In this document: positions 4,114-19,681 of the stretch, piece by piece | How the letters are laid out: every line of letters starts with the position of its first letter | Position numbering within the stretch: position 1 is the stretch's first letter | DNA from: an uncultured virus (IMG/VR IMGVR_UViG_3300046168_000051) | Lineage: Duplodnaviria > Heunggongvirae > Uroviricota > Caudoviricetes | Reading direction: 5' to 3' (one strand) | Length of the DNA: 20,000 nt | Virus record (IMG/VR): IMGVR_UViG_3300046168_000051 | The notes under the pieces: model-generated | The model's input: only the letters and a program-made list of their open reading frames with translations | The model's database searches: none | What the model was told of the DNA's origin: nothing | Translations under genes and position numbers: made by a program

Positions 4114-6851
4114 CGAACATAGCAATTTGTGAGCAAACCCCTGGATATCAGGGGCGAATGAGAGATGGAAGCCGAGTAGCGGTTAGGACAAGAGACAAAG
4201 ACGGCAACCGTAAGGTCGACTTCTATGATGTTCCCGCTGAATGTTATGTTGACTTGAACAACTTCGCTGAGCGTTATACATGGGATGGGCAGAAGAGAGT
4301 TAAGTGCAATCCTGCAAAGGTTGTCTTTGACCCTGTTGATTTCCTTACTCAAGACTGGCGAAAAGACAGGTCAGGTATAATTTCTGTCGAACCTAAGTCT
4401 GCGAAGACCATTGACAAGAGGCCACTTGCCCGTGTTACTTTCAATTCCCGTTCTGACTTGCGTAGCTTCCTTCGGGACTTCACTCCTGTTTATGGTGCTG
4501 ACTTGGCGCAAGAGGATATTTGCGCTATCAGGTATGAAACAGGAAATGAAGACTTCGAGTCTCACAAGTGCTACTTCGATATTGAAGCCGTTCAATTCAA
4601 GAGAGATGACCCACTAAAGGCTGAGTGGTTAGTCGATTGGAAGAAAGAGATTTGGCATGACCAGCAGATGGTTAACTCCATTGTTGCTTACGATAACTGG
4701 CTAGACACTTACTTTGTCTTTGCTTGCCACCCCACCTGGGATGAAGAAGTAACCAGTGCTCAAGACGGTGATAGGACTATCATCGAAAAGAAGCACAAGA
4801 CTGAGAAGGCTATGCTTACTTCTTTTGCTGAGTGGTTTTACAAGTCCGACTTCGATGTAGTCACTGGCTGGAACAGTGCTGGATATGATATGTCTGTTCT
4901 TTACCACCGTATGGAGTCTCATCGTGTGCCTCACTGCATGAACGGTGTTCACTTTGAGAACGGAATCATGCCTCGTGAAGTCTATGGTGGCGGGGCTATG
5001 TCCCCTTACGGTATCATGGATGAACCATTTCACAAGGGTGGCCGTGAGTACCTATGGCAACAACAACCACTACGAGGAGTCGACCATTTGGATATGATGG
5101 TGGCGTTCAAGCGTCTTTACAAAGACTCCACTAACAACGAATTGGTTTCTGCTCGCTTAGGTCGTGTTGCTCAATTCCTTGGGCTACGCGACGGTAAGTT
5201 AGAGTCACCTGACTTTTACTCAAAGGACTACCACATCGGGTGGGAACAGTTCCGAAACTACAACATTCGGGATGTTGAATTGCTAGTGCAGATTGACGAT
5301 GCATGGAATGTAATTGGGTCGTATAAGACTGTTCAACAGCTAATCGGTTGCCAGCTTCGCTCGACTTTCTATGCTACTGGGCTTGCGAAGGTTATGTTCA
5401 ATGAAGAGGCAGACTGGAAGCAACGCACTTACCCATACGAACATGAGTTTGCAAACGACGACGACGACCTTGAAGGTGCTATTGTTCTTGACCCAGTTGA
5501 ATTGGATTCAGTCGGGCTACATGACTGGACTGTCATTCTTGATTTCGCTGGGTTGTACCCTTCTATTATGTGCGCTTACAATACATGCCACTCTTCTAAG
5601 GTGCGACCAGGAATGCCTCACCTAGATGATGATATGATTGGGCATAAGGGTGTTCGTTTCCGTAAGAATCCTGTTGGTGTCCTTCCTAAAATGGTCCTTC
5701 GCCTTGACGAACAACGCGACGAATACAAAGCAAAGCTGAAAGAAGCAGAAGCCGCTGGTGATAAGAACGCCGCTCGTAAGTGGAACGCTATGCAGCTTTC
5801 AGTCAAAAGAATGCGCGCCAGTTTCTATGGGATTATGGCTTTTCCTAAGTTCTCATGGTATGACCCGGACATTGCTAAGACAATTACTATGGGTGGTCGC
5901 AATGCACTACTCTCTATCAAGGCTAAAGCCGAAGAAGCAGGGTTCAAGGTAGTATTCGGACACACTGATTCTATCTTCGTTACTATGCCTAAGGAATGGA
6001 CTCAAGAGAAAGTTTACGATGAATCCATCGCTCTTGCTAAAGTCCTCACTGACCATGTTCAAGCCGACCTTCGTACTGACAAAGTAGTAGTCGAGTTAGA
6101 GGCTATCATGGACAAGTATTTCATTGCTAAGAAGAACCGCTACGCTGGTCGTAAGGCATGGGACGACAAGAAGGGGTTCCTTAACCTCGACTTCTCCGAA
6201 GATGGTTGGCCGGAGGTTTCAAGGAAAATGTCCGGTATGGAAGCTAAGCAAACAAACACTGCCCCTATTGGTCGTAACATTCAGTTGCAAACGCTTGGTC
6301 GTATCTTCAATGATGAATCACCACGACAAATCCAAGAGAGTATCAAAACGCTAGTAAGCGAAGTCCGTAATGGTGATGTTGAAGACTCTCAGTTAGTCGC
6401 TAATGCTAAGCTCAACAAGTGGCTCCCTCACCATCAAGACTGGCACTGGGGCTATCCTAAGCACTGTGACTGTGGCGAATGCCCTGCACCAAAGGTCGGA
6501 GCCGAAAGGGATGATGACGATGCTTGCTATGCAAAGAAGTTTTGGTCTGCTACGGCAGCACTGTTCCACAATGATGTTCTTGCTGACGAGTCGAAGGGCT
6601 TTTTGCTACTCGATAAAGGAGACTCTTTCAGTTGGACTCATGTGTGTGATGGTCCGACTTCAATACCAAAGGATGGCTGGGTTGGTTTCTATGAGTTGGA
6701 GCAAATTGCTGACTACACCCTTGATTACGCCCTCTTAGCGGAGAAGCATGTAATCAAGAAGGTTGAGAACATTTACTACGGTATGGGCTGGGATATTGAC
6801 GCACTATACGAAAAGAAGAGTTACTCGTTGGATGCTTTCTTGTCCACATAA
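4110..6851 (+). CDS. polB: Family B DNA polymerase with 3'-5' exonuclease (913 aa)
   Basis: ExoI FDIE, ExoII GWNSAGYD, ExoIII YNIRD; motif A DFAGLYPSI; motif B KRMRASFYG; motif C FGHTDS; KKNRYAG; PIP-like C-terminus YSLDAFL. Confidence 0.97.
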   Translation: MTNIAICEQTPGYQGRMRDGSRVAVRTRDKDGNRKVDFYDVPAECYVDLNNFAERYTWDGQKRVKCNPAKVVFDPVDFLTQDWRKDRSGIISVEPKSAKTIDKRPLARVTFNSRSDLRSFLRDFTPVYGADLAQEDICAIRYETGNEDFESHKCYFDIEAVQFKRDDPLKAEWLVDWKKEIWHDQQMVNSIVAYDNWLDTYFVFACHPTWDEEVTSAQDGDRTIIEKKHKTEKAMLTSFAEWFYKSDFDVVTGWNSAGYDMSVLYHRMESHRVPHCMNGVHFENGIMPREVYGGGAMSPYGIMDEPFHKGGREYLWQQQPLRGVDHLDMMVAFKRLYKDSTNNELVSARLGRVAQFLGLRDGKLESPDFYSKDYHIGWEQFRNYNIRDVELLVQIDDAWNVIGSYKTVQQLIGCQLRSTFYATGLAKVMFNEEADWKQRTYPYEHEFANDDDDLEGAIVLDPVELDSVGLHDWTVILDFAGLYPSIMCAYNTCHSSKVRPGMPHLDDDMIGHKGVRFRKNPVGVLPKMVLRLDEQRDEYKAKLKEAEAAGDKNAARKWNAMQLSVKRMRASFYGIMAFPKFSWYDPDIAKTITMGGRNALLSIKAKAEEAGFKVVFGHTDSIFVTMPKEWTQEKVYDESIALAKVLTDHVQADLRTDKVVVELEAIMDKYFIAKKNRYAGRKAWDDKKGFLNLDFSEDGWPEVSRKMSGMEAKQTNTAPIGRNIQLQTLGRIFNDESPRQIQESIKTLVSEVRNGDVEDSQLVANAKLNKWLPHHQDWHWGYPKHCDCGECPAPKVGAERDDDDACYAKKFWSATAALFHNDVLADESKGFLLLDKGDSFSWTHVCDGPTSIPKDGWVGFYELEQIADYTLDYALLAEKHVIKKVENIYYGMGWDIDALYEKKSYSLDAFLST

Positions 6852-9800
6852 CGCTTCCCTATTTCTAGGTCAATCCCGACAGTAATGGCTTCAACCATCC
6901 CGTCAAGCAGGTCCACTGTACCCATGATTGGGTGCGCTCGTAGTGACTTTCCTGGGTCTTCCCCACCGATTCCTCCTAAGAGAGAAATTGAGTTAGCGAC
7001 CATGTGCCCGCTTTTACCTAATCCCGACAGGTAGCCTGTGCTTCCCATGTTGTCGATTAGCGCATCAATGTACCGCAAGTCCAGCTCTCCTAAGCCGTTA
7101 TCACTGTTCATCTGATTGTTGAATATCTCTTTGATACAAGAAAGTGCAGCTTCCAAACCATACTCGTGTGCAACCCAAAATGGGTCATTACAAACAGTGA
7201 GGTATTCATCATAGTACTCACCTATTAGGTCGTAAGCATTTTCCATCATTGGGTTGGTTCTTCCTGGGGCTGGTTTAGCTGGGCCTTTGACAAATACGCA
7301 CCAACGCTTATCTCCACCGTTAGGGTGAGTAGTAAAGTCTGAGAAAGCACGACCTCCGTTAATCAATCCGTTTACCTGATACTTACCTAGTGACTCCTTC
7401 AGTACTAAGAGGTAGGAGTCTATGTCTAAGCTCTCCGGTACTCCTTCAGTCCTTACTCTCAATCCACCCTCTATTTCATTGACATAAAACTTAGGCCTTT
7501 CGTTCCCGCCTTTGAAATCTAGGTACTTGTAAATGAAGCCCAAGTCTAGGTCAAAGGTTTCGACTACCTTGGAGTCATAGATAATATCGATTCCTCTTTC
7601 CTCAGGGAGGTATCTGAAAACCTTGACAATGTCGTCAAGCAAAAGAGTTGAGCAGAAATTAGCTAACTTCTTTGCGGTCTCTTCATTGTTGTATTCATCT
7701 TTCAAGAAAAACCTGGTAGCTGGTTGCTTAATTTCCGAGCGGGACAAATCCAGTACCTGTACGATTCTATCCGTAGTAGGAGTAGTACCCTTTCCCCCAC
7801 CGTGGAATGCGCGCAAACCAGCTTGCGTAACCGGTTCTCCGACATTCGCGGCACCAGTTGAACCAATCATCTCTCCTGGTCGCGCCTTATTCTCAATGTA
7901 ATAGTCGTAAGCGCGACCAAAGTAAGCTACTGGGTCTTCGATTTCTCTCGCTTCCTTTTCGAGGTCAATTTTTTCTGTCAATTTTGACAGAATATTTTTC
8001 GGTAATCGTCCCGCCTTTCCTCTCAAAGTGTATGTTGTACCTCTTTGACATGTGTCACAAGGGTCAAGTAGCGGAATACCATGTTTACACAGCTGTGAAA
8101 TGAAGTGAGACTGAAGTGAAAGTGAAAGTCCATTTGGATTATCAGGACCTCGCGCATGGAATGGTTGAAGCCCATCTTCACCAACTTGTAATGACAAAAC
8201 CTTGCCCAATCGCATGTTAACTAAGTAACCTCTATCGTCTATCATTAGATTTTCCGATGCGCGCTTTAGCCGGTGTGAAAGATAACCGGACTTTTGAATC
8301 GCGCCCATAGATGATTCCATAGTTGACCGGCGGCCAGCGGCGGAAGCCAGAAAATAATTTTCAGGAGACAAACCTTCGGAATAGGCCTGCTTTGCGAAAC
8401 CAAAGGCGTTCCCCGAATAGTCGGGCGGGTTATCGGTGTATATTGGCTCAAACTCAGGGTCGGCTTGTTGTTCATAGGAACCACTAACAGACCGACCTCC
8501 TGAGAAGTGTGACAATAGTCTGCCCACTTTTATTCCACTCATCAATCTGCTACCACCTATGGTTACCTGCCCATAAGCTCCTGACATTTGCTGAATATTC
8601 AAATTACCAGCACGAGCTCCTGAAACCACTGCTATGTTCATTTGGTTAGCAGTTCCTTGTAGCTCTTTAGTTAGTGAGATAATTTTCTTGTCGAAATCCC
8701 TAGTAATTTTTGCTACCGTTAATTCCATCCACCCTTGGGGGTCGTAAGTGAGCCAGTGACGAGAGTTTTCTTTGAAGTAATCATCAGGAAGCTCCTCTAG
8801 CGTTTTAGTGAAGAACGCCTCGGTTACAACTCGGATTTTCTCATTGGCTATGTCGTAAAGCTCCTGGATTTTCTTTTTGCTTTCGTTGTACCGTTCAAAG
8901 CCTGCGGCCTTACCTTCTCTAACTAAGGCCTCGTGGGCTCCTGCGCTGATTACTTCTCCAGTTTCCTTGTGACGATAAGCGAAATTGGACTCAAATGAAA
9001 TATCTTCAATACCAATAGTATACCCTACATACAAGTGTGCGGCAAAGAATAGACGGTTAATGTGGTCAATAAATTCCGCTAGCTTTCTAATTCCTAACTC
9101 ATAGTTGAAGTGATAGACAAATGCTGCCCCTAAAACCATTGAACCGTTTTTTACTCCCCTTGCATCCAGTGTACCATGGAGTAGTTTACCATCACGAATA
9201 GAAACTGGTTGCCCTGTTGAGTCTTCCCAATCGCAGTTGATTCCTTCAGGGATAAAGTGAGAAACTACTGCTTTACCAGTGTAATATATACTCTTGAAGT
9301 CAGGTTCGGGTAATGTGTCCATGTACTTGAGATTCCCTTCATCATCCCTAGTGTAAACAAGACTCATCATCTGAATGAGTGCTTTCTTAGTGAAGTAGAC
9401 ATGACCGTCTTTATCGTAGCCTATTCGTCCATCGAATGTACCATGCGGTCCTTTGAATTTCTTTCTCTTATCTTCGTCTAACTTTTGATAGGCGTTGTAA
9501 GTAATGGTAATGTCGTTACCATCTTCGTCCTTTCCTTTGTAGGTTAGTTTAGACTTATTCGGGAATGTAAGCAAGTAAGCACCTGATGTTTCATCTTGGT
9601 CAGAAGCAATAGTAGGTCTGCCGTAGCGAGAGTGAATAATTTGCTTGTTAACATCTAGAATGTCTTTAGCTTCTTGAATTGCTTCTTCTGATTGAGGTAC
9701 GAAGCAGCGCATAGCGTCACCGTCATAATCAGCGTTGAATGGGACACAAATAGTCGGGTTAAAGGAAAATGCCTTCTGCTTCATTGGTATGACTTTGCCT

Positions 9801-12046
9801 GCCATGACATTTTGACGATGGAGGGCTGGGGCACGGGTAAAGAGGATGGTGTCATTCTTTCTTAGAGAGCGATGAACTATGTCTCCAGGAACCAAGCGTT
9901 CTGCCTGTTCGCGGCGAATGTTAGAGGCAAATTCGTAGCGGTACTCTCTTCGTGCCCGCTTTATCTCTTCTTCCATGCCGTCTTTGTCTTCCTGGTCGTA
10001 ATACTTCGCAGTTATCCCTCTTAGAATCTCTCGATACCAAACAGTCTGAGCATCCGGAAACTTTTGCTTACCCATATCATCAAGAGCAAACGGGTCTTGT
10101 GGGCCGTTAAGTTCTCCTTCCAAATTAACGCGAGACTTACTATTTGGCCTAAGCTTCTGAATGTACTTGGCCCCGCCAATATGGTTTCCTTCGTCATCTT
10201 TTGGATAATAGGTATCTATGTCCCATTGGTCTAGTGCGCCTATTCCCTTCTTTTCAGGAGGATAACCCCTGATTACTGCTTCTCTTAGGTCCTCGATATT
10301 TTCCTTAGTCACTCTTACAGCTACTGTCATGCGAATACAAGCACCGATAGGTACTCCTACTTCATCTAACCTTAATGCCGGATTAGGAGTGATTACCGAA
10401 TACATGGTATGTTCTGTTACCTTAGACTGGTTAATTGCCCTAATGTGATTCTTCTTTTTGCCAGGTGGCTTGATTCTATCATACACTCCCTCTAATGACG
10501 CGTTTACGGCACCATCTCCTCCAAACTTCTGACTCATAGCTGGAGTGCCAAACGGAGTCTGTGTGCTAAGAGCCTGAGTGCATGCTTTGAACAACATAGA
10601 CTCGCTTCTGTCAAACTGGCTTCTGTCATTTTGCATATCGAATAGCTTTTGGTTTGCCTTTACTACATTGATGTATAGCTTGTTGAGGTCATTCATTTCC
10701 AACGCACCTGATGGGGTCTCCTGTGGTGGTCGGATATTGTTTGGTGCAATGGGGAACCTTCTCCAAAAAAGATAGCCGGGGTGAGAGCGTGGCTCGCCTG
10801 TGCTTGGGTTTAGTTCCGTGTTGAACCCCATTGCGAGTGCTTGGTCATTTGGAACTTGGTCAAGCGAGTCGGCTACAACACCATAGCGTACAGGTGGGTT
10901 TCTTGGGAATTCATCTTTAGGTCGGTCACCAGGTCTAGGGAAGAATTCGGCTGTTCTTCCCATACCAAACTTCATTCTAAACATGAGGATAGGCGATTTT
11001 TCATTGCAACGAGGGCAGTGGTTGACCTTAGTGCTAAGCGGAGTTGGTACTGGCCCGCCCTGTGAAAGCTGATAGGGGCCCAAGTTTTTCTTCCCCTCCT
11101 TGTAGTAAGCATTGTAAGAATCATTGAGCGCCTTCCAAATAAGAGCAAAGCCATCAGGGCTGGTAAACTTGTTTTCGTACATTATCTTCTTTGCATTTGC
11201 GATTAGTGGGTCTAGGTACTCATCGGGGAGAACAATTTCATGACAACTACGGCAGGTGTACTTTAGTGTCTTTACTAGCGGCGAAGAGTCAATATTGCCA
11301 CTAAGATACAGGTAGTTAGGAACTGGTACTACTAAGTTGATTCTGCCGAAGTGGCCAGGACAGGAATCGGCCTTGAATCTATTCTCGTTACCAGTATGTC
11401 CGCAGGTAAAGCAGGCATCGTTGTTGTAAGTGCCTAGCCGAAGGTCAGCAACCCCGCCGTGAATAGGCCGAGGAACTGCGGCAATAGCAGTCTTGCTTTG
11501 TCTTGGCGTTTCGTAAACTTCCGCGTGTCGTATTACTCGGTCACCACTTAGTAGTTCTATTTCCCTCGGTCCCATCATCCCGTGGTAAATAGCTCCTACT
11601 TGCTTTGTGATTTCGTGGAGTGTATGGTCAACTTTTGGTACAAGATTGAACTCGGCAGACACTGGCCCCTCTAAGACATATCCGTCGTAATCAGTTTCTA
11701 TTTCTATCCGGGCGGAGGCATCGAATAGTTCGGTGTAAAGCCAATCATCGGGCTTTGGCTCTTCGTTTAGGTACCGCCGAGTATTCTCATACGGGGTGTT
11801 TGTAACTTTGCATATTGTAATTAGCCCACTTTTAGCTCTCACCGCAGCTGCGTTTGGAGAATACATGTACCAGCGATAGGCTTCTGCTAAGGTTGCGGGC
11901 ACCCATCTGATTGTGTCGATTTCTATGAGTCCCTTTGTTTTGCCATTAGCATCTACTAGTATCTCTTCTTCGGTAAAGAACCAATAGAACCCGCTATCTA
12001 GTGGGTTTTCTATTTCGAGTTCTGGCTGTGGCCCCTGAATTACCAT
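6821..12046 (-). CDS. rpo1: DNA-directed RNA polymerase largest subunit, archaeal/eukaryotic type (Rpo1, A' plus A'' in one chain), 1741 aa
   Basis: Clamp Zn motif CFTCG...CPGHFGRINL; CRSC/CPRC; FTRAPALHR; catalytic NADYDGD (9716-9736); QD..SGAYLLT; SGARAG.NI.QM; bridge helix ...KSGYLSHRL; GEDG; trigger loop PGEMIG...GEPVTQAGLRAFH; YGLEAA. Confidence 0.97.
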   Translation of the reverse strand: MVIQGPQPELEIENPLDSGFYWFFTEEEILVDANGKTKGLIEIDTIRWVPATLAEAYRWYMYSPNAAAVRAKSGLITICKVTNTPYENTRRYLNEEPKPDDWLYTELFDASARIEIETDYDGYVLEGPVSAEFNLVPKVDHTLHEITKQVGAIYHGMMGPREIELLSGDRVIRHAEVYETPRQSKTAIAAVPRPIHGGVADLRLGTYNNDACFTCGHTGNENRFKADSCPGHFGRINLVVPVPNYLYLSGNIDSSPLVKTLKYTCRSCHEIVLPDEYLDPLIANAKKIMYENKFTSPDGFALIWKALNDSYNAYYKEGKKNLGPYQLSQGGPVPTPLSTKVNHCPRCNEKSPILMFRMKFGMGRTAEFFPRPGDRPKDEFPRNPPVRYGVVADSLDQVPNDQALAMGFNTELNPSTGEPRSHPGYLFWRRFPIAPNNIRPPQETPSGALEMNDLNKLYINVVKANQKLFDMQNDRSQFDRSESMLFKACTQALSTQTPFGTPAMSQKFGGDGAVNASLEGVYDRIKPPGKKKNHIRAINQSKVTEHTMYSVITPNPALRLDEVGVPIGACIRMTVAVRVTKENIEDLREAVIRGYPPEKKGIGALDQWDIDTYYPKDDEGNHIGGAKYIQKLRPNSKSRVNLEGELNGPQDPFALDDMGKQKFPDAQTVWYREILRGITAKYYDQEDKDGMEEEIKRARREYRYEFASNIRREQAERLVPGDIVHRSLRKNDTILFTRAPALHRQNVMAGKVIPMKQKAFSFNPTICVPFNADYDGDAMRCFVPQSEEAIQEAKDILDVNKQIIHSRYGRPTIASDQDETSGAYLLTFPNKSKLTYKGKDEDGNDITITYNAYQKLDEDKRKKFKGPHGTFDGRIGYDKDGHVYFTKKALIQMMSLVYTRDDEGNLKYMDTLPEPDFKSIYYTGKAVVSHFIPEGINCDWEDSTGQPVSIRDGKLLHGTLDARGVKNGSMVLGAAFVYHFNYELGIRKLAEFIDHINRLFFAAHLYVGYTIGIEDISFESNFAYRHKETGEVISAGAHEALVREGKAAGFERYNESKKKIQELYDIANEKIRVVTEAFFTKTLEELPDDYFKENSRHWLTYDPQGWMELTVAKITRDFDKKIISLTKELQGTANQMNIAVVSGARAGNLNIQQMSGAYGQVTIGGSRLMSGIKVGRLLSHFSGGRSVSGSYEQQADPEFEPIYTDNPPDYSGNAFGFAKQAYSEGLSPENYFLASAAGRRSTMESSMGAIQKSGYLSHRLKRASENLMIDDRGYLVNMRLGKVLSLQVGEDGLQPFHARGPDNPNGLSLSLQSHFISQLCKHGIPLLDPCDTCQRGTTYTLRGKAGRLPKNILSKLTEKIDLEKEAREIEDPVAYFGRAYDYYIENKARPGEMIGSTGAANVGEPVTQAGLRAFHGGGKGTTPTTDRIVQVLDLSRSEIKQPATRFFLKDEYNNEETAKKLANFCSTLLLDDIVKVFRYLPEERGIDIIYDSKVVETFDLDLGFIYKYLDFKGGNERPKFYVNEIEGGLRVRTEGVPESLDIDSYLLVLKESLGKYQVNGLINGGRAFSDFTTHPNGGDKRWCVFVKGPAKPAPGRTNPMMENAYDLIGEYYDEYLTVCNDPFWVAHEYGLEAALSCIKEIFNNQMNSDNGLGELDLRYIDALIDNMGSTGYLSGLGKSGHMVANSISLLGGIGGEDPGKSLRAHPIMGTVDLLDGMVEAITVGIDLEIGKRYVDKKASNE

Positions 12047-12047
12047 G

Positions 12048-12485
12048 TCATCCTCTCGCTGCGGTATATGCTAGCCAATCGGCCATCTCGTTAAGTTCTG
12101 TACCCATGTGCGCTTTGACCCATTGATACTGGTGGACTCCCCGTAATGAATCTTCTAGCTTCCTTATGCGCTTAATGATTTTGACCAGGTCGGGTTGTCT
12201 GATATTGTAGTTGTCGGAAAGACCCTCAACTACCATTTTAGAGTCGCTGATAATTGTAATGTGAATACTTGGCCCTAATTTTCGAGCGATTAAATCCTCT
12301 AAAGCAAGTTCAACTGCTACAAATTCGGCCATGTTGTTGGTAGTAACCCCGATATATTCACCATGTAGGTGAATTATCTTCCCGGTGTCCTTGTCAAGTA
12401 TGACATAGCCTGAACCGCATTCACCTTTACTATCGGTGTCGCGGTCTTTGATACAGCTACCGTCAGTCCACACTTCGTATTCCAT
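12048..12485 (-). CDS. rnhA: Ribonuclease HI
   Basis: TDGS, TNNMAE, SDSK, WVKAH and NEMAD give the full D-E-D-H-D catalytic set. Likely start is ATG 12485, 1 nt after the rpo5 stop. Confidence 0.95.
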   Translation of the reverse strand: MEYEVWTDGSCIKDRDTDSKGECGSGYVILDKDTGKIIHLHGEYIGVTTNNMAEFVAVELALEDLIARKLGPSIHITIISDSKMVVEGLSDNYNIRQPDLVKIIKRIRKLEDSLRGVHQYQWVKAHMGTELNEMADWLAYTAARG

Positions 12486-12486
12486 A

Positions 12487-12750
12487 TCAAACACCCTTGA
12501 CAACACGATACTTTACCTTAGTGCGGGTAGCGGGGTCGTCGCCATCACCATCGTTGAAGCGGCTTCTAACGACTTCTATCTTTATTACGGAATTAATGGG
12601 AGTTTCTTCTCCTTTCATTCTTAAGTGCTTAAGAGCAGCGTCTTCATACATTAGGGAGGGGAGCTCCTCTATCTTGATGGAGAGAGACTTTAGAACCGCT
12701 TCTGCATCAAGCGGAGAAAGAACTGTGTGTTCCGGCATTAAGTAGTGCAT
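12487..12750 (-). CDS. rpoH: RNA polymerase subunit Rpo5/RpoH (archaeal type, no eukaryotic jaw domain)
   Basis: HYLMPEHTVLS...LPSL..EDAAL...VIKI..RS...YRVV matches the Rpb5 C-terminal domain pattern; 87 aa. Confidence 0.93.
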   Translation of the reverse strand: MHYLMPEHTVLSPLDAEAVLKSLSIKIEELPSLMYEDAALKHLRMKGEETPINSVIKIEVVRSRFNDGDGDDPATRTKVKYRVVKGV

Positions 12751-13736: not shown

Positions 13737-14042
13737 TTGGCCAAATTCAAGAGAACAGTAATGAAAATAGAGCAGTGTTTCAAGGTCTATGAAGCAGAAA
13801 GTGACCTAGATGTGCTGTCTTTTCATCAAATCCGCGACTGGTACAATGACCGTACCAAAGATGGTATTACTTCAGCTCGCCTAATCAACCTCCTACGCAA
13901 GCGTCCTCAGTTCACATGGCAGCATACTGAGCGTAAAATTGGCTCTAATGAGACTCTATCTTACTGGTCACTTGGCCGCAAAGAAATCCTACCTAACCCG
14001 GCACAAGGCTGGGTTGTTGTTGAGCAAAGAGTGTTGGTGTAG
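13737..14042 (+). CDS. Winged-helix-like protein, possibly DUF3860-like
   Basis: TTG start after GGAGGAG (13725-13731). QIRDWYNDRTKDGITSARLINLLRKRPQF...W resembles DUF3860 from memory; not verified. Confidence 0.6.
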   Translation: MAKFKRTVMKIEQCFKVYEAESDLDVLSFHQIRDWYNDRTKDGITSARLINLLRKRPQFTWQHTERKIGSNETLSYWSLGRKEILPNPAQGWVVVEQRVLV

Positions 14043-14079
14043 TACTACCTTGGCGGGCGCTACAATATGAAGCGAGGAA
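14039..14079 (+). repeat. Repeat A, copy 1 (41 bp)
   Basis: GTAGTACTACCTTGGCGGGCGCTACAATATGAAGCGAGGAA; 3 mismatches to 16201-16241. Confidence 0.9.
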
Positions 14080-14105
14080 TGCCTCGCTTCGTGTATTAGA
14101 GTAAC

Positions 14106-15110
14106 ATGTTTAACTACATAATAAAAACGCTGCTAGAAGTACTGACTGACTTTGGACCTGCCGCTTTGGCAATCATCCTATTTACAATCACCTACTTTGA
14201 TTGGCGTATGAACAGAATTACGAAGAAATTGTTGGAAACTAACTTTACCGTTAGCGACCTAGAAAAAGAAAACTTGAAACAAGTGAATGATGTGCGAGCT
14301 GACTCTCAACGAGACTCTCATAACATCCTCCTTATTTCTGAGATGCAAGGTCAAACCCTCACTGAGGCGTTTATGTCGCTTGTATCACATGTCAATAAGA
14401 ATGCTGAAGCTGTTATCACTACCCATGATGCCATTAAGCATTTTTCTGAAAATCTTGAACAACTTGAAAACGCAGTCCTAGCTACCGCTCTTCGTGAGGG
14501 GAAGCGCATGGCTGCGCTTGAAAAAGAGGTACAGAGTTTGAAGGAAGACCTAGAGTCCCTTCAAAGCACTGTTGGATTTCATGAGTCTATCATGCAAGTC
14601 CGCGAAGTGCTTCCTGTGCCGCGCAAAGCAGACTACTTGGGTTCAATCGAGGTTGAAACCCTCGTTGAGCCACTCAGCTCTCCCACCAATCCTGGTTGGG
14701 CCGCTGAGGAAGTCCTCGAAGCCAAAGATTCTCTTTGGCCCGAAGAAGTTCGAGAAGAAGTTGAAAACCCACATTCCGTTGGAGTTGCACCAGTTTTGGC
14801 TGCGCAGCGTTCGCGGAACAGGGTTGGAATGTTTGAATCACGCGTTGATGTGGTTCCTGACATTGACGACTTGAACAAAGAAGAATATGAGCTACTTCTA
14901 AGTGGCTACATATTTGACATGAAGGAACAAGGAATTCAAATCCCAACCTGCGACCAAGGCGTACTAGACGAAAAGTACGGCAATAAACTGACAGCAATGG
15001 ATTGGGAAATCATTCGCTTCAACGAAACGGGAATTACAGCCCGATTCGGAGAAGGTCAAGAGCCAGTCCCCGGTGCTTATCGCCGTGGTGACCCTTACCG
15101 ACCACTTTGA
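14106..15110 (+). CDS. Membrane-anchored coiled-coil protein (334 aa)
   Basis: N-terminal TM segment (FGPAALAIILFTITYF), heptad-rich middle, acidic C-terminal half. Confidence 0.8.
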   Translation: MFNYIIKTLLEVLTDFGPAALAIILFTITYFDWRMNRITKKLLETNFTVSDLEKENLKQVNDVRADSQRDSHNILLISEMQGQTLTEAFMSLVSHVNKNAEAVITTHDAIKHFSENLEQLENAVLATALREGKRMAALEKEVQSLKEDLESLQSTVGFHESIMQVREVLPVPRKADYLGSIEVETLVEPLSSPTNPGWAAEEVLEAKDSLWPEEVREEVENPHSVGVAPVLAAQRSRNRVGMFESRVDVVPDIDDLNKEEYELLLSGYIFDMKEQGIQIPTCDQGVLDEKYGNKLTAMDWEIIRFNETGITARFGEGQEPVPGAYRRGDPYRPL

Positions 15111-15135
15111 ACACCTTTTTCTCAACAATACCCCC

Positions 15136-15221
15136 CATACTAGAGTAGACATAAGAACCTCTGAGTATTTCTGCCCAAAGGGCAGTAGCCGCCGACCATG
15201 CACCCAGGTGCATGCAAGGCC
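15136..15221 (+). repeat. Repeat B, copy 1 (three-hairpin element)
   Basis: Near-identical to 15542-15626 (one indel, one substitution). Stems ATACT-AGAG/CTCT-g-AGTAT, CTGCCC/GGGCAG and CATGCAC/GTGCATG. Confidence 0.92.
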
Positions 15222-15275
15222 CCCAACCCTCCGCCAGTGGTTCCCCCACTGTGCGTTGGATTAGGAGGTAAAAAA

Positions 15276-15485
15276 ATGAATCTGATTGCAAAATTGGGAA
15301 TGGGCTACCATAATGGCCCCTTCTCGGTAAAGACGAACGGAGCGACTCCCAACTGGAAGGGCCTAACTTGGCCTGGTCCAGCTGGAGAGACCCTAGTAGC
15401 AGAAGCAATCGAGGTAAGCATGTATGACTCAGTAGTCATCATTGACGGCAAGCGCTACAACAGCACTTGTTTTGTCGACGCTTAA
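15276..15485 (+). CDS. Hypothetical protein (69 aa)
   Basis: GGAGGT-A7 directly before ATG 15276. The frame is also open from the ATG inside repeat B (15198). Confidence 0.7.
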   Translation: MNLIAKLGMGYHNGPFSVKTNGATPNWKGLTWPGPAGETLVAEAIEVSMYDSVVIIDGKRYNSTCFVDA

Positions 15486-15503
15486 CCTCGGTTTCTGCAT
15501 ACT

Positions 15504-15535
15504 CCACAGGTAGCTCGCACACCTACAAAGTGCGA
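15504..15535 (+). repeat. Repeat C, copy 1 (32 bp, predicted H-type pseudoknot)
   Basis: CCACAGGTAGCTCGCACACCTACAAAGTGCGA, identical to 16059-16090. Confidence 0.92.
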
Positions 15536-15541
15536 GATTAA

Positions 15542-15626
15542 CATACTAGAGTAGACATAAGAACCTCTGAGTATTCTGCCCAAAGGGCAGTAGCCGCCGA
15601 CCATGAACCCAGGTGCATGCAAGGCC
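15542..15626 (+). repeat. Repeat B, copy 2
   Basis: Near-identical to 15136-15221. Confidence 0.92.
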
Positions 15627-15661
15627 TTTAGTGCGGTAAGCACAGGATGTGAAAACATACC

Positions 15662-15688
15662 CGAAAATAACGAAAATAACGAAAATAA
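15662..15688 (+). repeat. Tandem repeat (CGAAAATAA)x3
   Basis: Read directly from the sequence, just upstream of ATG 15696. Confidence 0.9.
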
Positions 15689-15695
15689 CGAACAA

Positions 15696-16049
15696 ATGAA
15701 CGAACTGAAAAGATTGGAAGATGAAGCAGCAAAACTTGCTAAAGCAACCCAATACGAAGGAGAATGGATTCGACTCTCGATAGGAGAGAAAATCGCCTTG
15801 ATGGTAGCATATGAAACTGCTACCGGGGCAAAAGCTGACCTAGACGGCGCGAAGAGACTCTTTATACTAATAAAGGAAAACAACGCACAGGCCGAAAGGA
15901 ACATCAAGAACAACTACCTTCCATATCAAGAAAAACTTGAAAGGGAAATCAAAGCCCTAAAGCTAGAGCTTAGAACTCCTGAACAAGTAGCTTCTGATGA
16001 ACAAGACGAAGAGCGCCGACTAGCGCGACTTCGAATGTTCCAAGACTGA
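15696..16049 (+). CDS. Helical, coiled-coil hypothetical protein (117 aa; 148 aa if started at 15603)
   Basis: E/K/L/A-rich ORF between repeats B and C. Confidence 0.75.
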   Translation: MNELKRLEDEAAKLAKATQYEGEWIRLSIGEKIALMVAYETATGAKADLDGAKRLFILIKENNAQAERNIKNNYLPYQEKLEREIKALKLELRTPEQVASDEQDEERRLARLRMFQD

Positions 16050-16058
16050 GCAGTTCAA

Positions 16059-16090
16059 CCACAGGTAGCTCGCACACCTACAAAGTGCGA
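16059..16090 (+). repeat. Repeat C, copy 2
   Basis: Identical to 15504-15535; 9 nt after a stop codon. Confidence 0.92.
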
Positions 16091-16096
16091 AACGAC

Positions 16097-16173
16097 ACTG
16101 TGCAATGCGTTGCACAGTTTCTGCCCTTTTGGGCAGTAGCCGCCGACCATGCACCCAGGTGCATGCAAGGCCC
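16097..16173 (+). repeat. Repeat B, copy 3 (variant)
   Basis: Core 16119-16173 is conserved, with loop AAA changed to TTTT. The first hairpin is replaced by ACTGTGCAA-TGCG-TTGCACAGT. Confidence 0.9.
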
Positions 16174-16200
16174 AAGTATTGGTAAATAGCGAATGTCAAG

Positions 16201-16241
16201 GTAGTACTACTTTGGCGGGCGCTACAATATGGAACGAGGAA
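16201..16241 (+). repeat. Repeat A, copy 2
   Basis: 3 mismatches to 14039-14079. Confidence 0.9.
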
Positions 16242-16242
16242 C

Positions 16243-17100
16243 CACCTTAGGACTGATTAAATGCGTCCGAAGGAGGTAAAGATTTGACAACCAGTGCATT
16301 ACGCACACACACATTTACCACATGTCATTTCCTACCTCGACCCCCCTTCGGAACGGGGAGAGGCCGTCGAAAGACAAGACCGAAGGTTTGCGCAACAGCG
16401 CCTACCACCCCACCGAAGAATTAGTGCGGAACGAAAGGTTTCGAGGCGATGAAATATGCGCTTTTATGGAACCTTCACTAGTACAATCCTGGAACTTAGT
16501 AGAGAAATCAAACGGCGACGGATAAGCGTGAAATTGCATATATGAGTTAGGACCCAAGCGGTGCTAAGGCTTAGAGTAACAAAGAGTTTCCAATTCTCTT
16601 TAACACGATGACAAGTCTAGCCCAAAACCATGACAAGATGATATGAATTTAGCAACCGAAAGGTTGCACTTAGATGACTGAGAACACTTCGGTGCGGTCG
16701 TCGAAACCCCTGAGCTATGATGCACAGTATAAACGCCCCCTGGCCTAAGGCCTACATGAAATGCCGAATGCTCATGCGACGGTCGAAAGACCATCAAATG
16801 AACAGACTAACTTAACTGACAGGAGGGGATATGACGGACTTCGGTCCCGATGTGCTCGTGCGAAAAAAATGCTGGGGAACAGGGAGAAGGTTACGCACCT
16901 CTCCCTTAGAAGCGAAGTAAAAAACGCCCCAAGTCAATAATTCTCCCCCCGAATCGCCGGGCGCAGAATTAGGCCACCACAACCGTGTTCGACCGGACTG
17001 GTGGCCCCAAGGCTTGGATTAGTGAGTGATGAAATTAATTGAAAGGTTGTTGGACAACCTGTATGGTATACTAGTTTTAACTAGGAGTGCCTACAACTAG
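16243..17100 (+). ncRNA. Candidate large structured non-coding RNA, unit 1; boundaries approximate
   Basis: No credible ORF. Plus-strand GAAA/UUCG-capped stems at 16366-16375, 16652-16667, 16685-16694, 16781-16792 and 16836-16847; longer stems at 16881-16906 and 16972-17006. Confidence 0.7.
16293..16322 (+). repeat. Repeat D, copy 1
   Basis: AGTGCATTACGCACACACACATTTACCACA; differs from 17108-17138 by one A. Confidence 0.9.
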
Positions 17101-17107
17101 AAGATTA

Positions 17108-17138
17108 AGTGCATTACGCACACACACAATTTACCACA
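17108..17138 (+). repeat. Repeat D, copy 2
   Basis: AGTGCATTACGCACACACACAATTTACCACA. Confidence 0.9.
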
Positions 17139-17400
17139 CTCGCCGGAAGTTCGATTTATCGAACTTCGTTATAATAACTTGAGACTAAAATAGGGCTTAT
17201 GCCCGGCGAACCTATCACCGTAAGGATGGTGGGTATAGTCGCACAGTAATTTATCAGCCCTCTTCGGAGGGAAACAGAAATCCAGATACCAGCTTTCAAA
17301 GGCTGAGACTGATATACGCCCACATTAAGTGACCCTACCGGATTGAGCCGAGGGTACAGTGGTGCGCGGAATTTGGATGTTAGAATAACAAACAAAAATT
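17108..17400 (+). ncRNA. Candidate structured RNA, unit 2, with group I intron-like core topology
   Basis: Crossing pairs TCGCC/GGCGA and GACTA/TAGTC, plus hairpins at 17146-17167, 17193-17204, 17210-17234 and 17258-17271. Confidence 0.55.
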
Positions 17401-17437
17401 AACCGGGGTAGCATTAAACCTACCCCGGTTTTTTTTT
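17401..17437 (+). terminator. Intrinsic terminator-like hairpin plus U-tract
   Basis: AACCGGGGTAG-cattaaac-CTACCCCGGTT, a perfect 11-bp stem running into T9. Confidence 0.8.
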
Positions 17438-17495
17438 GTATCAGTGCATGCCTAGAGCATGAATAAGACCTACTACGGTAGGAGGTAAAAAAAAC

Positions 17496-19681
17496 ATGAA
17501 AAAAAATATGAAAATGAATACCCTGATGATGATGATGGTGCTGTTTTTGCTAGGTGGCTTTGTGCTACTTGGTGCGACCGGCACTGCATCAATCGATGAC
17601 CGAACCCAAGCAGACAACGACTCCCAACAGCGTGTCCTTCCCCAGGACATGCACTTGAGCCGTTACTCTGTCAGGAAACCAACCAAGGAAGAGAAGAAAA
17701 AGGCACTATGGCGCCAAGCCAAGTGCAATGCTTCTGTTGACCTTGGAGACTTCTTTGCTATTACTCGCGAGAGTAAGGAGAGAAAGCACCCTGGCACGAA
17801 GCTACAAAAAAATGCTGAAAGACGGTTCGGCATAAAAACCCCCCACGCCAAGCCGCATTTTTACTTGCGAAAGACATCTACAATCGGTGTCATAAATTTG
17901 GCGACGACAGTGTTCAAACGGTCCTCAACGATGAGGTCGAAGAACTACTGAAGTACGGTACAAAGCGGATAAAGGACAAGACCTACGCGGTCGACTATAC
18001 CCTGCATGTACTCAAAGATTTGGGAGGCGCGTTTAAAAGAGTCTTTGAACAGAATGGCCTGGCCATCAATGACAAAGCTCGAAAGAACGACAAAAAGATT
18101 ACCCACCAAGAAAGAGAACAAAGAATGGCTATTAGGCGAAAGCTTACTGTCAATGTCTCTAACCTTGTTACAGCCCTCAAAGCTAACAAGGACATTCTTA
18201 AGGAATCTGGCTATGAATTACAAATCAAACCTTACAAGCACTTCAAGAAGAATTCTGTCACTCCAAAACTGTGGCATGAAATGTCTTTCAAGAGCATGCC
18301 CACTATGAGGGCTGTTGCTAATGAGGTTGAGAAAAATTTCGATTCAACAACCTACAACGATATTAAAGCTCAATACACCGCTGAAGCCCTTAAGGAAGAA
18401 GCAGTAACGAAGCTGAAGTTGTGGAAAGAACTATACGATACTGATATGCAAAAACTCCTGAAGGTTTGCCCTGAAGGAAACGGCCTCTTCGGTATTGTGA
18501 AAGACTTGATGGAAACTGGTACGCTAATACGGACCCTCGAAAAGGAGGGCGTCGAATCAATGAGCACTGTTGAGAAGGTGATAAACCTTCGAAAACAATT
18601 CGTTGAAGCTTACGCGGAACACATGAAGACCACCATGCCTGTTCGTAGTGAACTTTTAGACACAGCTGTCGAAAAAGCAATTACGAGCAAGCTGCGAGAT
18701 ATCAAGAAGAATTCCCACTCCTGGGAAATTATGGTTACTCGCCAACCCCGTCGTAATGAAACAGATGTCACCATGTTGTGGCACCTGTCTCATATGACCG
18801 AATACAAGAACGCTAAGGCTAGCGTTCGAAAGAACAATCATACAGGCGCAAGATACTTGTTGGGACCCTCCAACGGTGTTACTGTACCTGATTCGATTGC
18901 GATTGGATATGTTAGAGCCCTCCGCGACACAAGCGCGGGCTCTCGTCAATTTACCGGTGATACAGTGTCATTACAAATGATACTGCCAAACTGGAAAAGA
19001 CAGTTTACGGTGACAGAAGACATGAAAGACAGCGATGTCAGGAAAGTCATGAAGCGCCGAAAACACCAAGCTGAACTCTATACGATGATTAATGTTGGAC
19101 TGGGCAAAAACCCAAAACAGCCAGCACATCTCGTAATGGGGCTATATTCTGACCCCGCTCTTGTTAAAAGTGGCGGACAGATGGCTGCGCCGGTCCTCAA
19201 GACCCTTAAGCCGCAGTCTGACGCTCCTAATTCTAAGCCTAACAAGCGAAAGAATAAGAGAAAGCAACAAGGACCAAACACAGTTAAGAACACTCAAAAG
19301 GTGAACAAGGCTGCAAAGACCCTTGATGTTGACGCAAACGCAGCAACCCCTGAGGAAGTTGCGTACTACTCGCGTCGTAACGAAAGCGAAAGCCCGAATT
19401 ACGCGAGTATGACAAATTCTGTATTGAAAGAGTACTGTCGTGCTGCTGGCCTCCAAGTCAGCGGTAACAAAGCAGCCCTCGTGGAGCGCCTAAACAGTGC
19501 TCCGTTCAATGTCGACGGAAATGATGATGTATTCGACCAGTTAATGACGACTGGTAGTGCATCCATCGGTGAACCTTCTAAGGAGCCTACAACTCCTAAG
19601 CGAGTAAAGAAGACTGGTCAAAAGCCCGTCACTCCAACTCGTGGCCGCACCACCGGCAAGAAGTCTGACCCTGACAACTGA
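17496..19681 (+). CDS. Large basic protein (~728 aa) with N-terminal hydrophobic helix and C-terminal SAP domain; frameshift near 17806-17820
   Basis: GGAGGT-A8 before ATG 17496. The frame of ORF 18020-19681 is open back to 17819 and reads as protein (KTVRHKNPPRQAAFLLAKDIYNRC...). SAP motif YASMTNSVLKEYCRAAGLQVSGNKAALVERL at about 19400-19492. Confidence 0.75.

Follow-up and report, generated by a model that had tools for sequence, protein, structure and literature searches.

A virus-encoded RNA resembling a circularly permuted catalytic domain of archaeal RNase P RNA

The window analysed here is a 20,000-nucleotide stretch of DNA from an uncultured virus, densely coding apart from one locus of about 1.2 kb (16243–17437, plus strand), which raises the question of what that locus encodes. 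The original prediction described a structured non-coding locus, probably two RNAs sharing a leader and belonging to a new class of large RNA that could not be matched to RNase P. Only short ORFs of 51–79 aa overlap the stretch, and its RNA structure was borne out by folding z-scores of −6.7 (17100–17445) and −4.1 (16285–17100). The count of at least six stems capped by GAAA or UUCG loops held for stems of at least 3 bp, where seven GNRA/UUCG-capped stems were found on the plus strand (shuffled sequences: mean 2.5, maximum 8), and fell short for stems of at least 4 bp, where the plus strand has five and the minus strand none (500 shuffles: mean 0.95, maximum 4). The tetraloops themselves are poorly kept among the related loci (numbered L): L004 and L008 have something else in place of the GAAA loop near 16664, L003 and L004 read UUCU where the window has UUCG at 17263, and the stem with a GAAA loop near 16785 falls within a stretch resembling coding DNA of a downstream gene. 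The proposed Rfam search returned no family at its gathering score. ARAGORN found nothing in the locus, and no model of GOLLD, ROOL, OLE or other large Rfam ncRNAs matched. A GOLLD/ROOL-like RNA of 1.2 kb was ruled out by the missing Rfam match together with the unconserved upstream 780 nt; what survives of the proposed new class is a covarying, transcribed-looking RNA that no Rfam model describes.

The extent of the RNA was defined by six close homologs, five from a pattern scan of metagenomes (six matches) and L091 as the sixth; the pattern matches L001, L002 and L006 were attributed to chance. The segment 17018–17439 is kept at 79–99% in all six, L007 included, and conservation sets in at about 17018–17021. 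The conserved RNA is one molecule of approximately 370–420 nt, running from 17022 to 17389 or to the terminator. Repeat D does begin at 16293 and 17108, with repeat A upstream, and a terminator-like hairpin (17401–17430) followed by a T run closes the locus, all as described earlier. The division into two units, each opened by repeat D, was not upheld: every one of the six homologous loci has a single copy at the position of the second, and the four that span the site of the first copy all lack it. RNA contigs cover 16201–16362 and 16286–16465, and the arrangement in the window is therefore not a misassembly as far as these contigs show. The exact repeat D was found in none of the viral contigs. 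Instead of two RNAs with a shared leader, the locus holds a single conserved RNA behind a variable leader (Table 1).

Part of the locus was present in 20 of 21 listed sequencing runs from 10 studies, 18 of the runs being on record as RNA; the RNA is thus represented in marine RNA libraries. Four runs were mapped, all as contigs, in which strand and level are not readable; the contigs cover the locus, and in two of the four runs they also cover the flanking genes. Contig depth peaks over the core in two of the four, although contigs cannot rank expression, and no joints indicating a circular RNA were seen in the contigs of the four runs. Contigs of two studies end at 17022, one of them with a loose end that we take to be a template-switch adapter, which hints at 17022 as a candidate 5′ end of the RNA. 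This position is the G of a UAG lying two bases 3′ of a 7-bp helix (AAG in L091). Close to it, at 17026–17032, stands GUGAUGA, presumably a box C-like motif and possible L7Ae site; it is followed by CUGA in L003, L008 and L091, and not in the window.

Table 1. Features of the RNA locus and its upstream flank (window coordinates)
Feature	Position	Strand	Remarks
Repeat A	16120–16172	+	One of three copies separating cassette genes; kept in L005, L007, L008
Further repeat	16166–16241		From repeat search
Promoter-like motif at the head of the locus	16219–16231	+	Presumed role
Variable structured leader (first unit of the original prediction)	16243–17021	+	Mosaic, largely dispensable
Repeat D, first copy	16293–16322	+	Seen only in this genome
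Possible H-type pseudoknot and GNRA hairpin	16345–16411	+	Helices 16345–51/16380–86 and 16355–58/16408–11
Downstream-gene-like stretch	16757–16821	+	76–84% like the 5′ coding region of a downstream gene family
Covarying hairpin, UAG immediately after	16881–16909	+	Three compensatory pairs
Minihelix-like stem with inner hairpin, then CCA	16972–17009	+	Two compensatory pairs in L008
5′ extension of the conserved RNA	17022–17167	+	Three hairpins; repeat D 17108–17138; pseudoknot strand 17140–17144; hairpin 17146–17167
P5 strand (3′ in normal RNase P)	17168–17178	+	Pairs with 17379–17389, closing the core; 3 pairs two-sided
J5/15, P15, A-rich L15, two hairpins	17179–17244	+	P15 17183–87/17236–40
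CR-IV	17245–17250	+	Six nucleotides, AGUAAU
P2 enclosing P19, CR-V, P4 strand and P1	17252–17314	+	P2 17252–57/17309–14; compensatory pairs in P2, P19, P1
P19 (inside P2)	17258–17271		
CR-V (inside P2)	17274–17279		ACAGAA
P4 strand (inside P2)	17280–17287		
P1 hairpin (inside P2)	17290–17305		
P3 with internal loop	17318–17365	+	
CR-I and second P4 strand	17366–17378	+	GCGGA; 8 contiguous pairs with 17280–87
P5, other strand	17379–17389	+	No S-domain after
Intrinsic-terminator-like hairpin and T run	17401–17439	+	Compensatory changes in L007

The leader reads as a variable, structured precursor region. A motif similar to the promoter-like one was found upstream of the core in 10 of the 11 loci examined (not in L012), and its distance to CR-V is 1055 in the window, 872, 1128, 804 and 442 in four close relatives, and 252–569 in five distant ones. 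Leader size ranges from about 190 to 870 nt among the close relatives; L005 and L008 are without 16246–16342 and 16421–16520, and the region upstream of the RNA in L007 gave no blastn alignment to the leader of the window. Covariation in the leader amounted to 7 of 59 pairs in one count and 1 of 42 in another. Both helices of the possible H-type pseudoknot form in each of four sequences taken singly, and its pair count on the MAFFT alignment was matched or exceeded by 45 of 500 shuffles. The downstream-gene-like stretch is probably a captured gene fragment. Lying just upstream of the candidate 5′ end and showing covariation in L003 and L008, the minihelix-like stem may serve as a processing signal. 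Helices followed by UAG are weakly raised in the leader of the window (5 of 13 UAGs, as high in 2 of 60 shuffles) and also raised in L008, and not in L004, L005, L007 or L091. The leader was also considered as a decayed second copy of the core; this idea was dropped when R1, a covariance model built from the six close homologs, gave no second match in the window.

The elements of the core were named by comparison with E. coli rnpB and 66 cellular RNase P RNAs. From 5′ to 3′, they run P5, P15, CR-IV, P2, P19, CR-V/P4, P1 hairpin, P2, P3, CR-I/P4 and P5, which is the order of a circularly permuted RNase P C-domain: P1, P2, P3, P5 and P15 keep their canonical cyclic order, and the linear order is rotated. 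In sequence terms, the 11-bp P5 strand is followed by UUGA, CR-IV stands in the string GC-AC-AGUAAU, and the eight P4 bases behind ACAGAA are followed by an A. Judged by these comparisons, the core is a catalytic domain whose chain is interrupted where the S-domain would be and made continuous at P1. The earlier failure to match the locus to RNase P is thus reversed, and it was the rotated order of the elements that let the kinship escape recognition.

Helices of the core covary among homologs, as the original prediction had asked of a genuine RNA. In the six close homologs, two-sided changes affect 8 of the 82 pairs, located in P1, P2, P4 and P5, and 97% of the cells are paired, while slid controls gave zero or one such pair. 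The P4 pseudoknot between CR-I and CR-V is present, and its pairs 17280/17378 and 17286/17372 vary on both strands. Further compensatory changes came from RNA contigs, at 17140/17209, 17144/17205, 17252/17314, 17255/17311, 17259/17270 and 17291/17304, with coupling deduced from equal depths. A pseudoknot from the core to the 5′ extension (17205–17209/17140–17144) shows two compensatory changes, seen in an RNA contig and in L091. The last pseudoknot, together with a GACUA/UAGUC helix, would also fit the topology of a group I intron-like core in the close homologs, with 17140–17240 read as P3, P7 (GACUA/UAGUC) and P8. The would-be P4–P6 is, however, a plain variable hairpin, no Rfam group I model matched, and the conserved motifs lie downstream; as the sequence of the GACUA/UAGUC helix varies freely in distant homologs, there is no conserved guanosine site. 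The group I reading was rejected on this free change, and we regard it as scarcely credible.

Distant members were obtained through the RNA polymerase subunit gene of the element. An Rpo1 alignment of 33 rows led to five full-length relatives from viral contigs and two from genome contigs, and all seven loci have the same elements in the same order, a six-nucleotide CR-IV included, upstream of Rpo1 on the opposite strand. No blastn match links the distant loci to the window. The P4 strands of the distant loci have different sequences that still pair, P5 is a helix of 9–14 bp of unrelated sequence, P1 is closed by a GCAA loop in L010, and the 5′ extension is not common to these loci. When the distant members were included, 38 of 69 pairs changed on both sides, in an alignment that leans towards the model. 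R1 gave full-length matches in L010, L011 and L092 (E 6e-9 to 3e-7), whose Rpo1 proteins are 31–34% identical; it missed L012, L013 and L014, matched no cellular RNase P RNA and had no chromosomal match in 151 genomes.

Standard searches were blank at the family level. The Rfam RNase P models matched neither the window nor L010, and four half-molecule searches designed to admit truncated matches were equally negative. With nhmmer, profiles of 65 archaeal RNase P RNAs in rotated, normal and half form gave a best E of 1.1 over 3.05 Mb, with no locus of the group (termed group D below) near the top, and a loose CR-V/CR-I motif scan alone did not discriminate, such motif pairs being common by chance. 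A rotated descriptor did separate them: over 3.05 Mb, the group D loci were the top 13 of 477 candidates (one locus counted twice), with scores of 62.3 for the window and 64.6 for L010, compared with 61–75 for rotated cellular controls (65 of 66 scored) and 49.9 for the best background; L012 (45.7) and L278 (47.8) fell within the background. The motif matrices of the descriptor came from the 66 cellular RNase P RNAs only; its design, which permits a short CR-IV and an unbulged P4, postdates sight of the viral sequences, and the result is thus support, not proof. Three further loci, L278, L260 and L263 (the last identical to L011 over the locus), came from a later pattern scan; they were selected for a short CR-IV and are not counted as evidence for its length. 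Twelve of the 19 matches of that scan had no blastn match to group D loci, and of these twelve only L260 scored above background. L260 lies in a complete 127.6-kb record (G237) that resembles group D in having RNase H and RusA but gave only a weak match to Rpo1 and none to PolB, and is a more distant carrier of the permuted RNA. Searches for relatives through single proteins in viral and genome contigs found none, nor did blastn of the phage collection.

The blank family searches and the frequency of chance motif pairs would be expected of a new ncRNA class unrelated to RNase P that matches its motifs by chance or convergence. Three conserved motifs and seven helices, the CR-I/CR-V pseudoknot among them, nevertheless occur with precisely the cyclic order and spacing that RNase P has, in lineages of otherwise unrelated sequence, and we give an unrelated origin little weight. 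Very probably, this virus-encoded RNA descends from archaeal RNase P RNA, of which it retains only the catalytic domain, in circularly permuted form.

The genes of the window include a resolvase, PolB, a fused Rpo1, RNase H and Rpo5, the fused Rpo1 (1741 aa), RNase H and Rpo5 forming a single run at 6821–12750. No match to the Rpo2 family was found among the ORFs scanned in the relatives G001 and G002. PolB, resolvase, Rpo1 and Rpo5 fit a reading of the window as part of an element like magrovirus group D. That group is described as having DNAP, thermosome, resolvase and RNA polymerase A without the morphogenetic block (PMC5434244, PMC10160649, PMC11706807). PolB, resolvase and RNA polymerase A are shared by the window, and the thermosome by the relatives G001 and G002 only; no capsid family was found by Pfam, and the contigs measure 110–144 kb. 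The main text of two of these papers is silent on RNase P or non-coding RNA (PMC5434244, PMC10160649). Among the 49 best of 83 Rpo1 relatives, the matches are full-length or long, the contigs reach at most 138 kb, and one is labelled Poseidoniales. The close relative L091 lies in an archaeal MAG and the more distant L092 in a bacterial MAG. We infer that the host belongs to the marine archaea of MG-II.

Several features of the flanks vary among the close relatives. Upstream of the locus lies a cassette region (14039–16241) of small ORFs bordered by repeats of 32–76 nt; close relatives differ in its ORF content, in the manner of a gene array driven by recombination. On the 3′ side of the terminator (17446–17461), one to three extra genes stand in L003, L004, L005 and L008 and none in the window; L005 is 98% identical to the window on both sides of its insertion. 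The two ORFs at 17496–19681 (151 and 553 aa) correspond to one ORF of 722–774 aa in L004, L005, L007 and L008; the window has a frameshift near 17838, a place at which one RNA contig carries an additional base, and a SAP domain lies near the end.

The viral core departs from RNase P RNA at places tied to substrate and catalysis. The S-domain with the T-loops of CR-II and CR-III is absent; P5 closes a core of 196–255 nt, and the terminator follows. CR-IV has six nucleotides in all nine annotated loci, compared with eight in 65 of 66 cellular RNAs. In the clade of the window, P4 forms eight of eight pairs without a bulge and four of eight in the bulged register, leaving no bulged U. P4 is likewise unbulged in L260, pairs at seven of eight positions either way in the L011 clade, has a bulged C in L010, and has a bulged U with two mismatches in L012; the bulged U is present in 65 of the 66 cellular RNase P RNAs. 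The third P4 pair is U-G in the unbulged and ambiguous loci, as it is in 11 of the 66 cellular RNAs, 14 of which can also be drawn with eight contiguous P4 pairs. J5/15 is UGA, not CAA. No conserved GARAR loop was seen by eye, and there is no P8. By model match, bulged U, CR-IV length or GARAR loop, the RNA fails membership of RNase P and of RNase MRP, and it should therefore be filed as neither. It works at most like the catalytic core of RNase P/MRP.

Published work bears on how much each departure would cost. C-domains alone can cleave, slowly (PMC13022451), and type T RNase P RNAs indicate that cells tolerate loss of most of the S-domain (PMC3579882). Deletion of the bulged U greatly lowers the activity of M. 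jannaschii RNase P (PMC6565675), and the role of this nucleotide is also covered in PMC11143913 and PMC3737539. RNase MRP is characterised by a CR-IV of six nucleotides and by having lost the T-loops, and exchange of CR-IV between RNase P and MRP impairs both (PMC13184271).

One outcome of these losses would be an RNA of the same RNase P origin that has ceased to be catalytic: with its P4/P2/P3 junction retained, it would serve as an abundant decoy or scaffold that binds host RNase P proteins or a viral protein, and damps host tRNA maturation or organises a viral RNP. The bulged U is lost or disturbed in every lineage seen (none in the window and L260, C in L010, mismatched neighbours in L012), the S-domain is gone, and the parts that remain include those gripped by Pop5 (CR-IV) and Rpp30 (P2–P3) (PMC6565675). 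An RNase P-like RNA of camelpox virus is inactive and has been discussed as a decoy (PMC3001073). Of 61 genomes from the presumed host order (the order of G005), 58 have a normal RNase P RNA. In the same order, however, neither Pop5 nor Rpp30 exceeded the cut-off in any of 31 genomes, whereas the S-domain binder Rpp29 was found in 30 of the 31. A mimic would moreover be expected to keep the eight-nucleotide CR-IV of the host, yet the family fixes another length, and the active-site elements CR-I and CR-V are kept across proteins of about 30% identity. We consider a non-catalytic role unlikely, though it is the main rival of the catalytic reading.

The distribution of protein partners was examined on the viral side as well. 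Pfam searches found no RNase P protein genes in 150 of the 167 ORFs of the complete relative G002 or in the 131 of 131 ORFs of G001, and Pop5 and Rpp30 were found in none of five records of related elements. The RNase P proteins of the presumed MG-II hosts would form a set that is either reduced or highly diverged, and incomplete sets have been noted in Thermoplasma (PMC4919917). Two RNase P RNA matches lie 2 kb apart on one archaeal contig (G089:C306:3601-3893 and 5738-6031). Since the host order has both a normal RNase P RNA and Rpp29, the viral RNA fills no gap in host tRNA processing. G001 (L184 6256–6330) and G002 (L176 10366–10440) each have a single tRNA-Arg gene (anticodons GCG and CCG), and with only one tRNA gene in each of these two relatives, tRNA maturation is an unlikely purpose.

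The 5′ extension suggests another mode of action, in which a cis-acting, single-turnover ribozyme would cut itself from the precursor with the extension as a tethered substrate. A 7-bp acceptor-like stem (17022–28/17137–43) would present its 3′ strand docked at the L15 position; this stem starts at the candidate 5′ end, and the covarying pseudoknot 17140–44/17205–09 lies where L15 normally holds the substrate's 3′ end (PMC11143913). Tethered C-domain constructs do self-cleave (PMC13022451). Against this, the stem and the pseudoknot share bases and are partly mutually exclusive, the stem has no two-sided change in six sequences and one mismatch in L091, the 5′ end comes from two contigs, and the pseudoknot does no better than chance in the distant loci (equalled in 37–95 of 200 shuffles). 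We regard such a self-cleaving element as a poor candidate.

The preferred reading remains that of a catalytic-domain descendant of RNase P RNA that may process viral transcripts. According to the proposed mechanism, the chain was opened at the former S-domain site, and the old 5′ and 3′ ends were joined by the loop on P1. Transcription from a promoter at about 16220, and trimming of the resulting long precursor at about 17022, are both inferred steps; the core with its P4 pseudoknot would then fold into a remodelled endonuclease, with the conserved U-G wobble standing in for the bulged U at the metal site. Given the proposed descent, action as a processing endonuclease appears evenly balanced in our estimate. 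That catalysis occurs, and on which substrate, is our guess. The lost tRNA-elbow T-loops and the six-nucleotide CR-IV, both marks of RNase MRP, would make single-stranded or hairpin-flanked RNA the most likely substrate, rather than pre-tRNA. One task could be the cutting of polycistronic transcripts of the element into single messages, perhaps along with release of the RNA itself. We tentatively put the full reading, a remodelled P/MRP-type ribozyme with putative activity on viral transcripts, at slightly under an even chance.

A candidate substrate class is offered by ORFs marked with a hairpin and YAG. In one block of G002 (50–92 kb, plus strand, L177–L179), a short hairpin and YAG directly precede the start codon of 26 of 49 ORFs, compared with YAG just 5′ of 102 of 1075 ATGs (9.5%). 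In G001 the mark occurs at close to background frequency (7 of 88), and the window does not show it (0 of 8). We hypothesise that the UAG at 17022 is linked to these marks. The most specific version, an active permuted S-domain-free ribozyme of group D elements that independently followed the MRP route, acquired a new active-site geometry with a U-G wobble in place of the bulged U and cuts at hairpin-YAG sites to give nearly leaderless mRNAs, is speculative and rather improbable as a whole.

Natural permuted tmRNA and tRNA genes and engineered permuted RNase P RNAs have their ends moved and their fold kept. Compared with archaeal RNase P RNA (RF00373), the viral RNA has a similar C-domain, with P1, P2, P3, P4, P5, P15 and P19, the cyclic order of CR-I, CR-IV and CR-V, the 5+3 spacing after ACAGAA and the A-rich L15. 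It differs in its rotated linear order, the P1 hairpin, the missing S-domain, a CR-IV two nucleotides shorter, the missing bulged U in the window, the extra pseudoknot to the 5′ extension, its location in a virus-like element and its escape from the model. The type T RNase P RNA of Thermoproteaceae has also lost most of its S-domain and is also missed by the standard Rfam model, but it is cellular and of normal order, with universal P4 and P15/P2 positions and short P7–P9 stems (PMC3579882). RNase MRP RNA shares the six-nucleotide CR-IV, the lack of CR-II/III T-loops and a P5 directly after CR-I, whereas it is eukaryotic and of normal order, keeps the bulged U, carries the GARAR loop on P8 and binds many proteins (PMC13184271); the likeness is probably convergent. 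The camelpox RNA is virus-encoded with an RNase P-like secondary structure, but it comes from a poxvirus, is inactive in vitro and is not described as permuted (PMC3001073). It was the only viral precedent in the literature searched, and no natural permuted RNase P RNA, or such an RNA in archaeal viruses, was found in that literature, from which subscription journals were largely missing. The diverged RNase P RNAs of PMC8172020 are, as described there, cellular. Tan1, an abundant MG-II ncRNA of 229 nt (PMC5069720), is a different RNA and shows by eye none of the motifs.

The permuted RNA points to a blind spot, as permuted members of known RNA families escape covariance-model searches. Very few ribozymes are universal, RNase P RNA being, to our knowledge, among them, and its gene order, its bulged U and the eight nucleotides of its CR-IV are regarded as invariant. 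The viral family departs from all three of these traits yet stays conserved in distantly related viruses, which makes it a natural experiment in the requirements of the catalytic core; at about 220 nt it is also easy to assay. It would provide an independent test of whether CR-IV length decides if rigid tRNA or flexible single-stranded RNA is the substrate, and of the way in which RNase P could have given rise to RNase MRP. If the RNA is a decoy, it would represent a new viral way to act on host tRNA maturation. If the most specific version above holds, it would be the first viral, the first naturally permuted and the first MRP-like member of the family from the prokaryote world.
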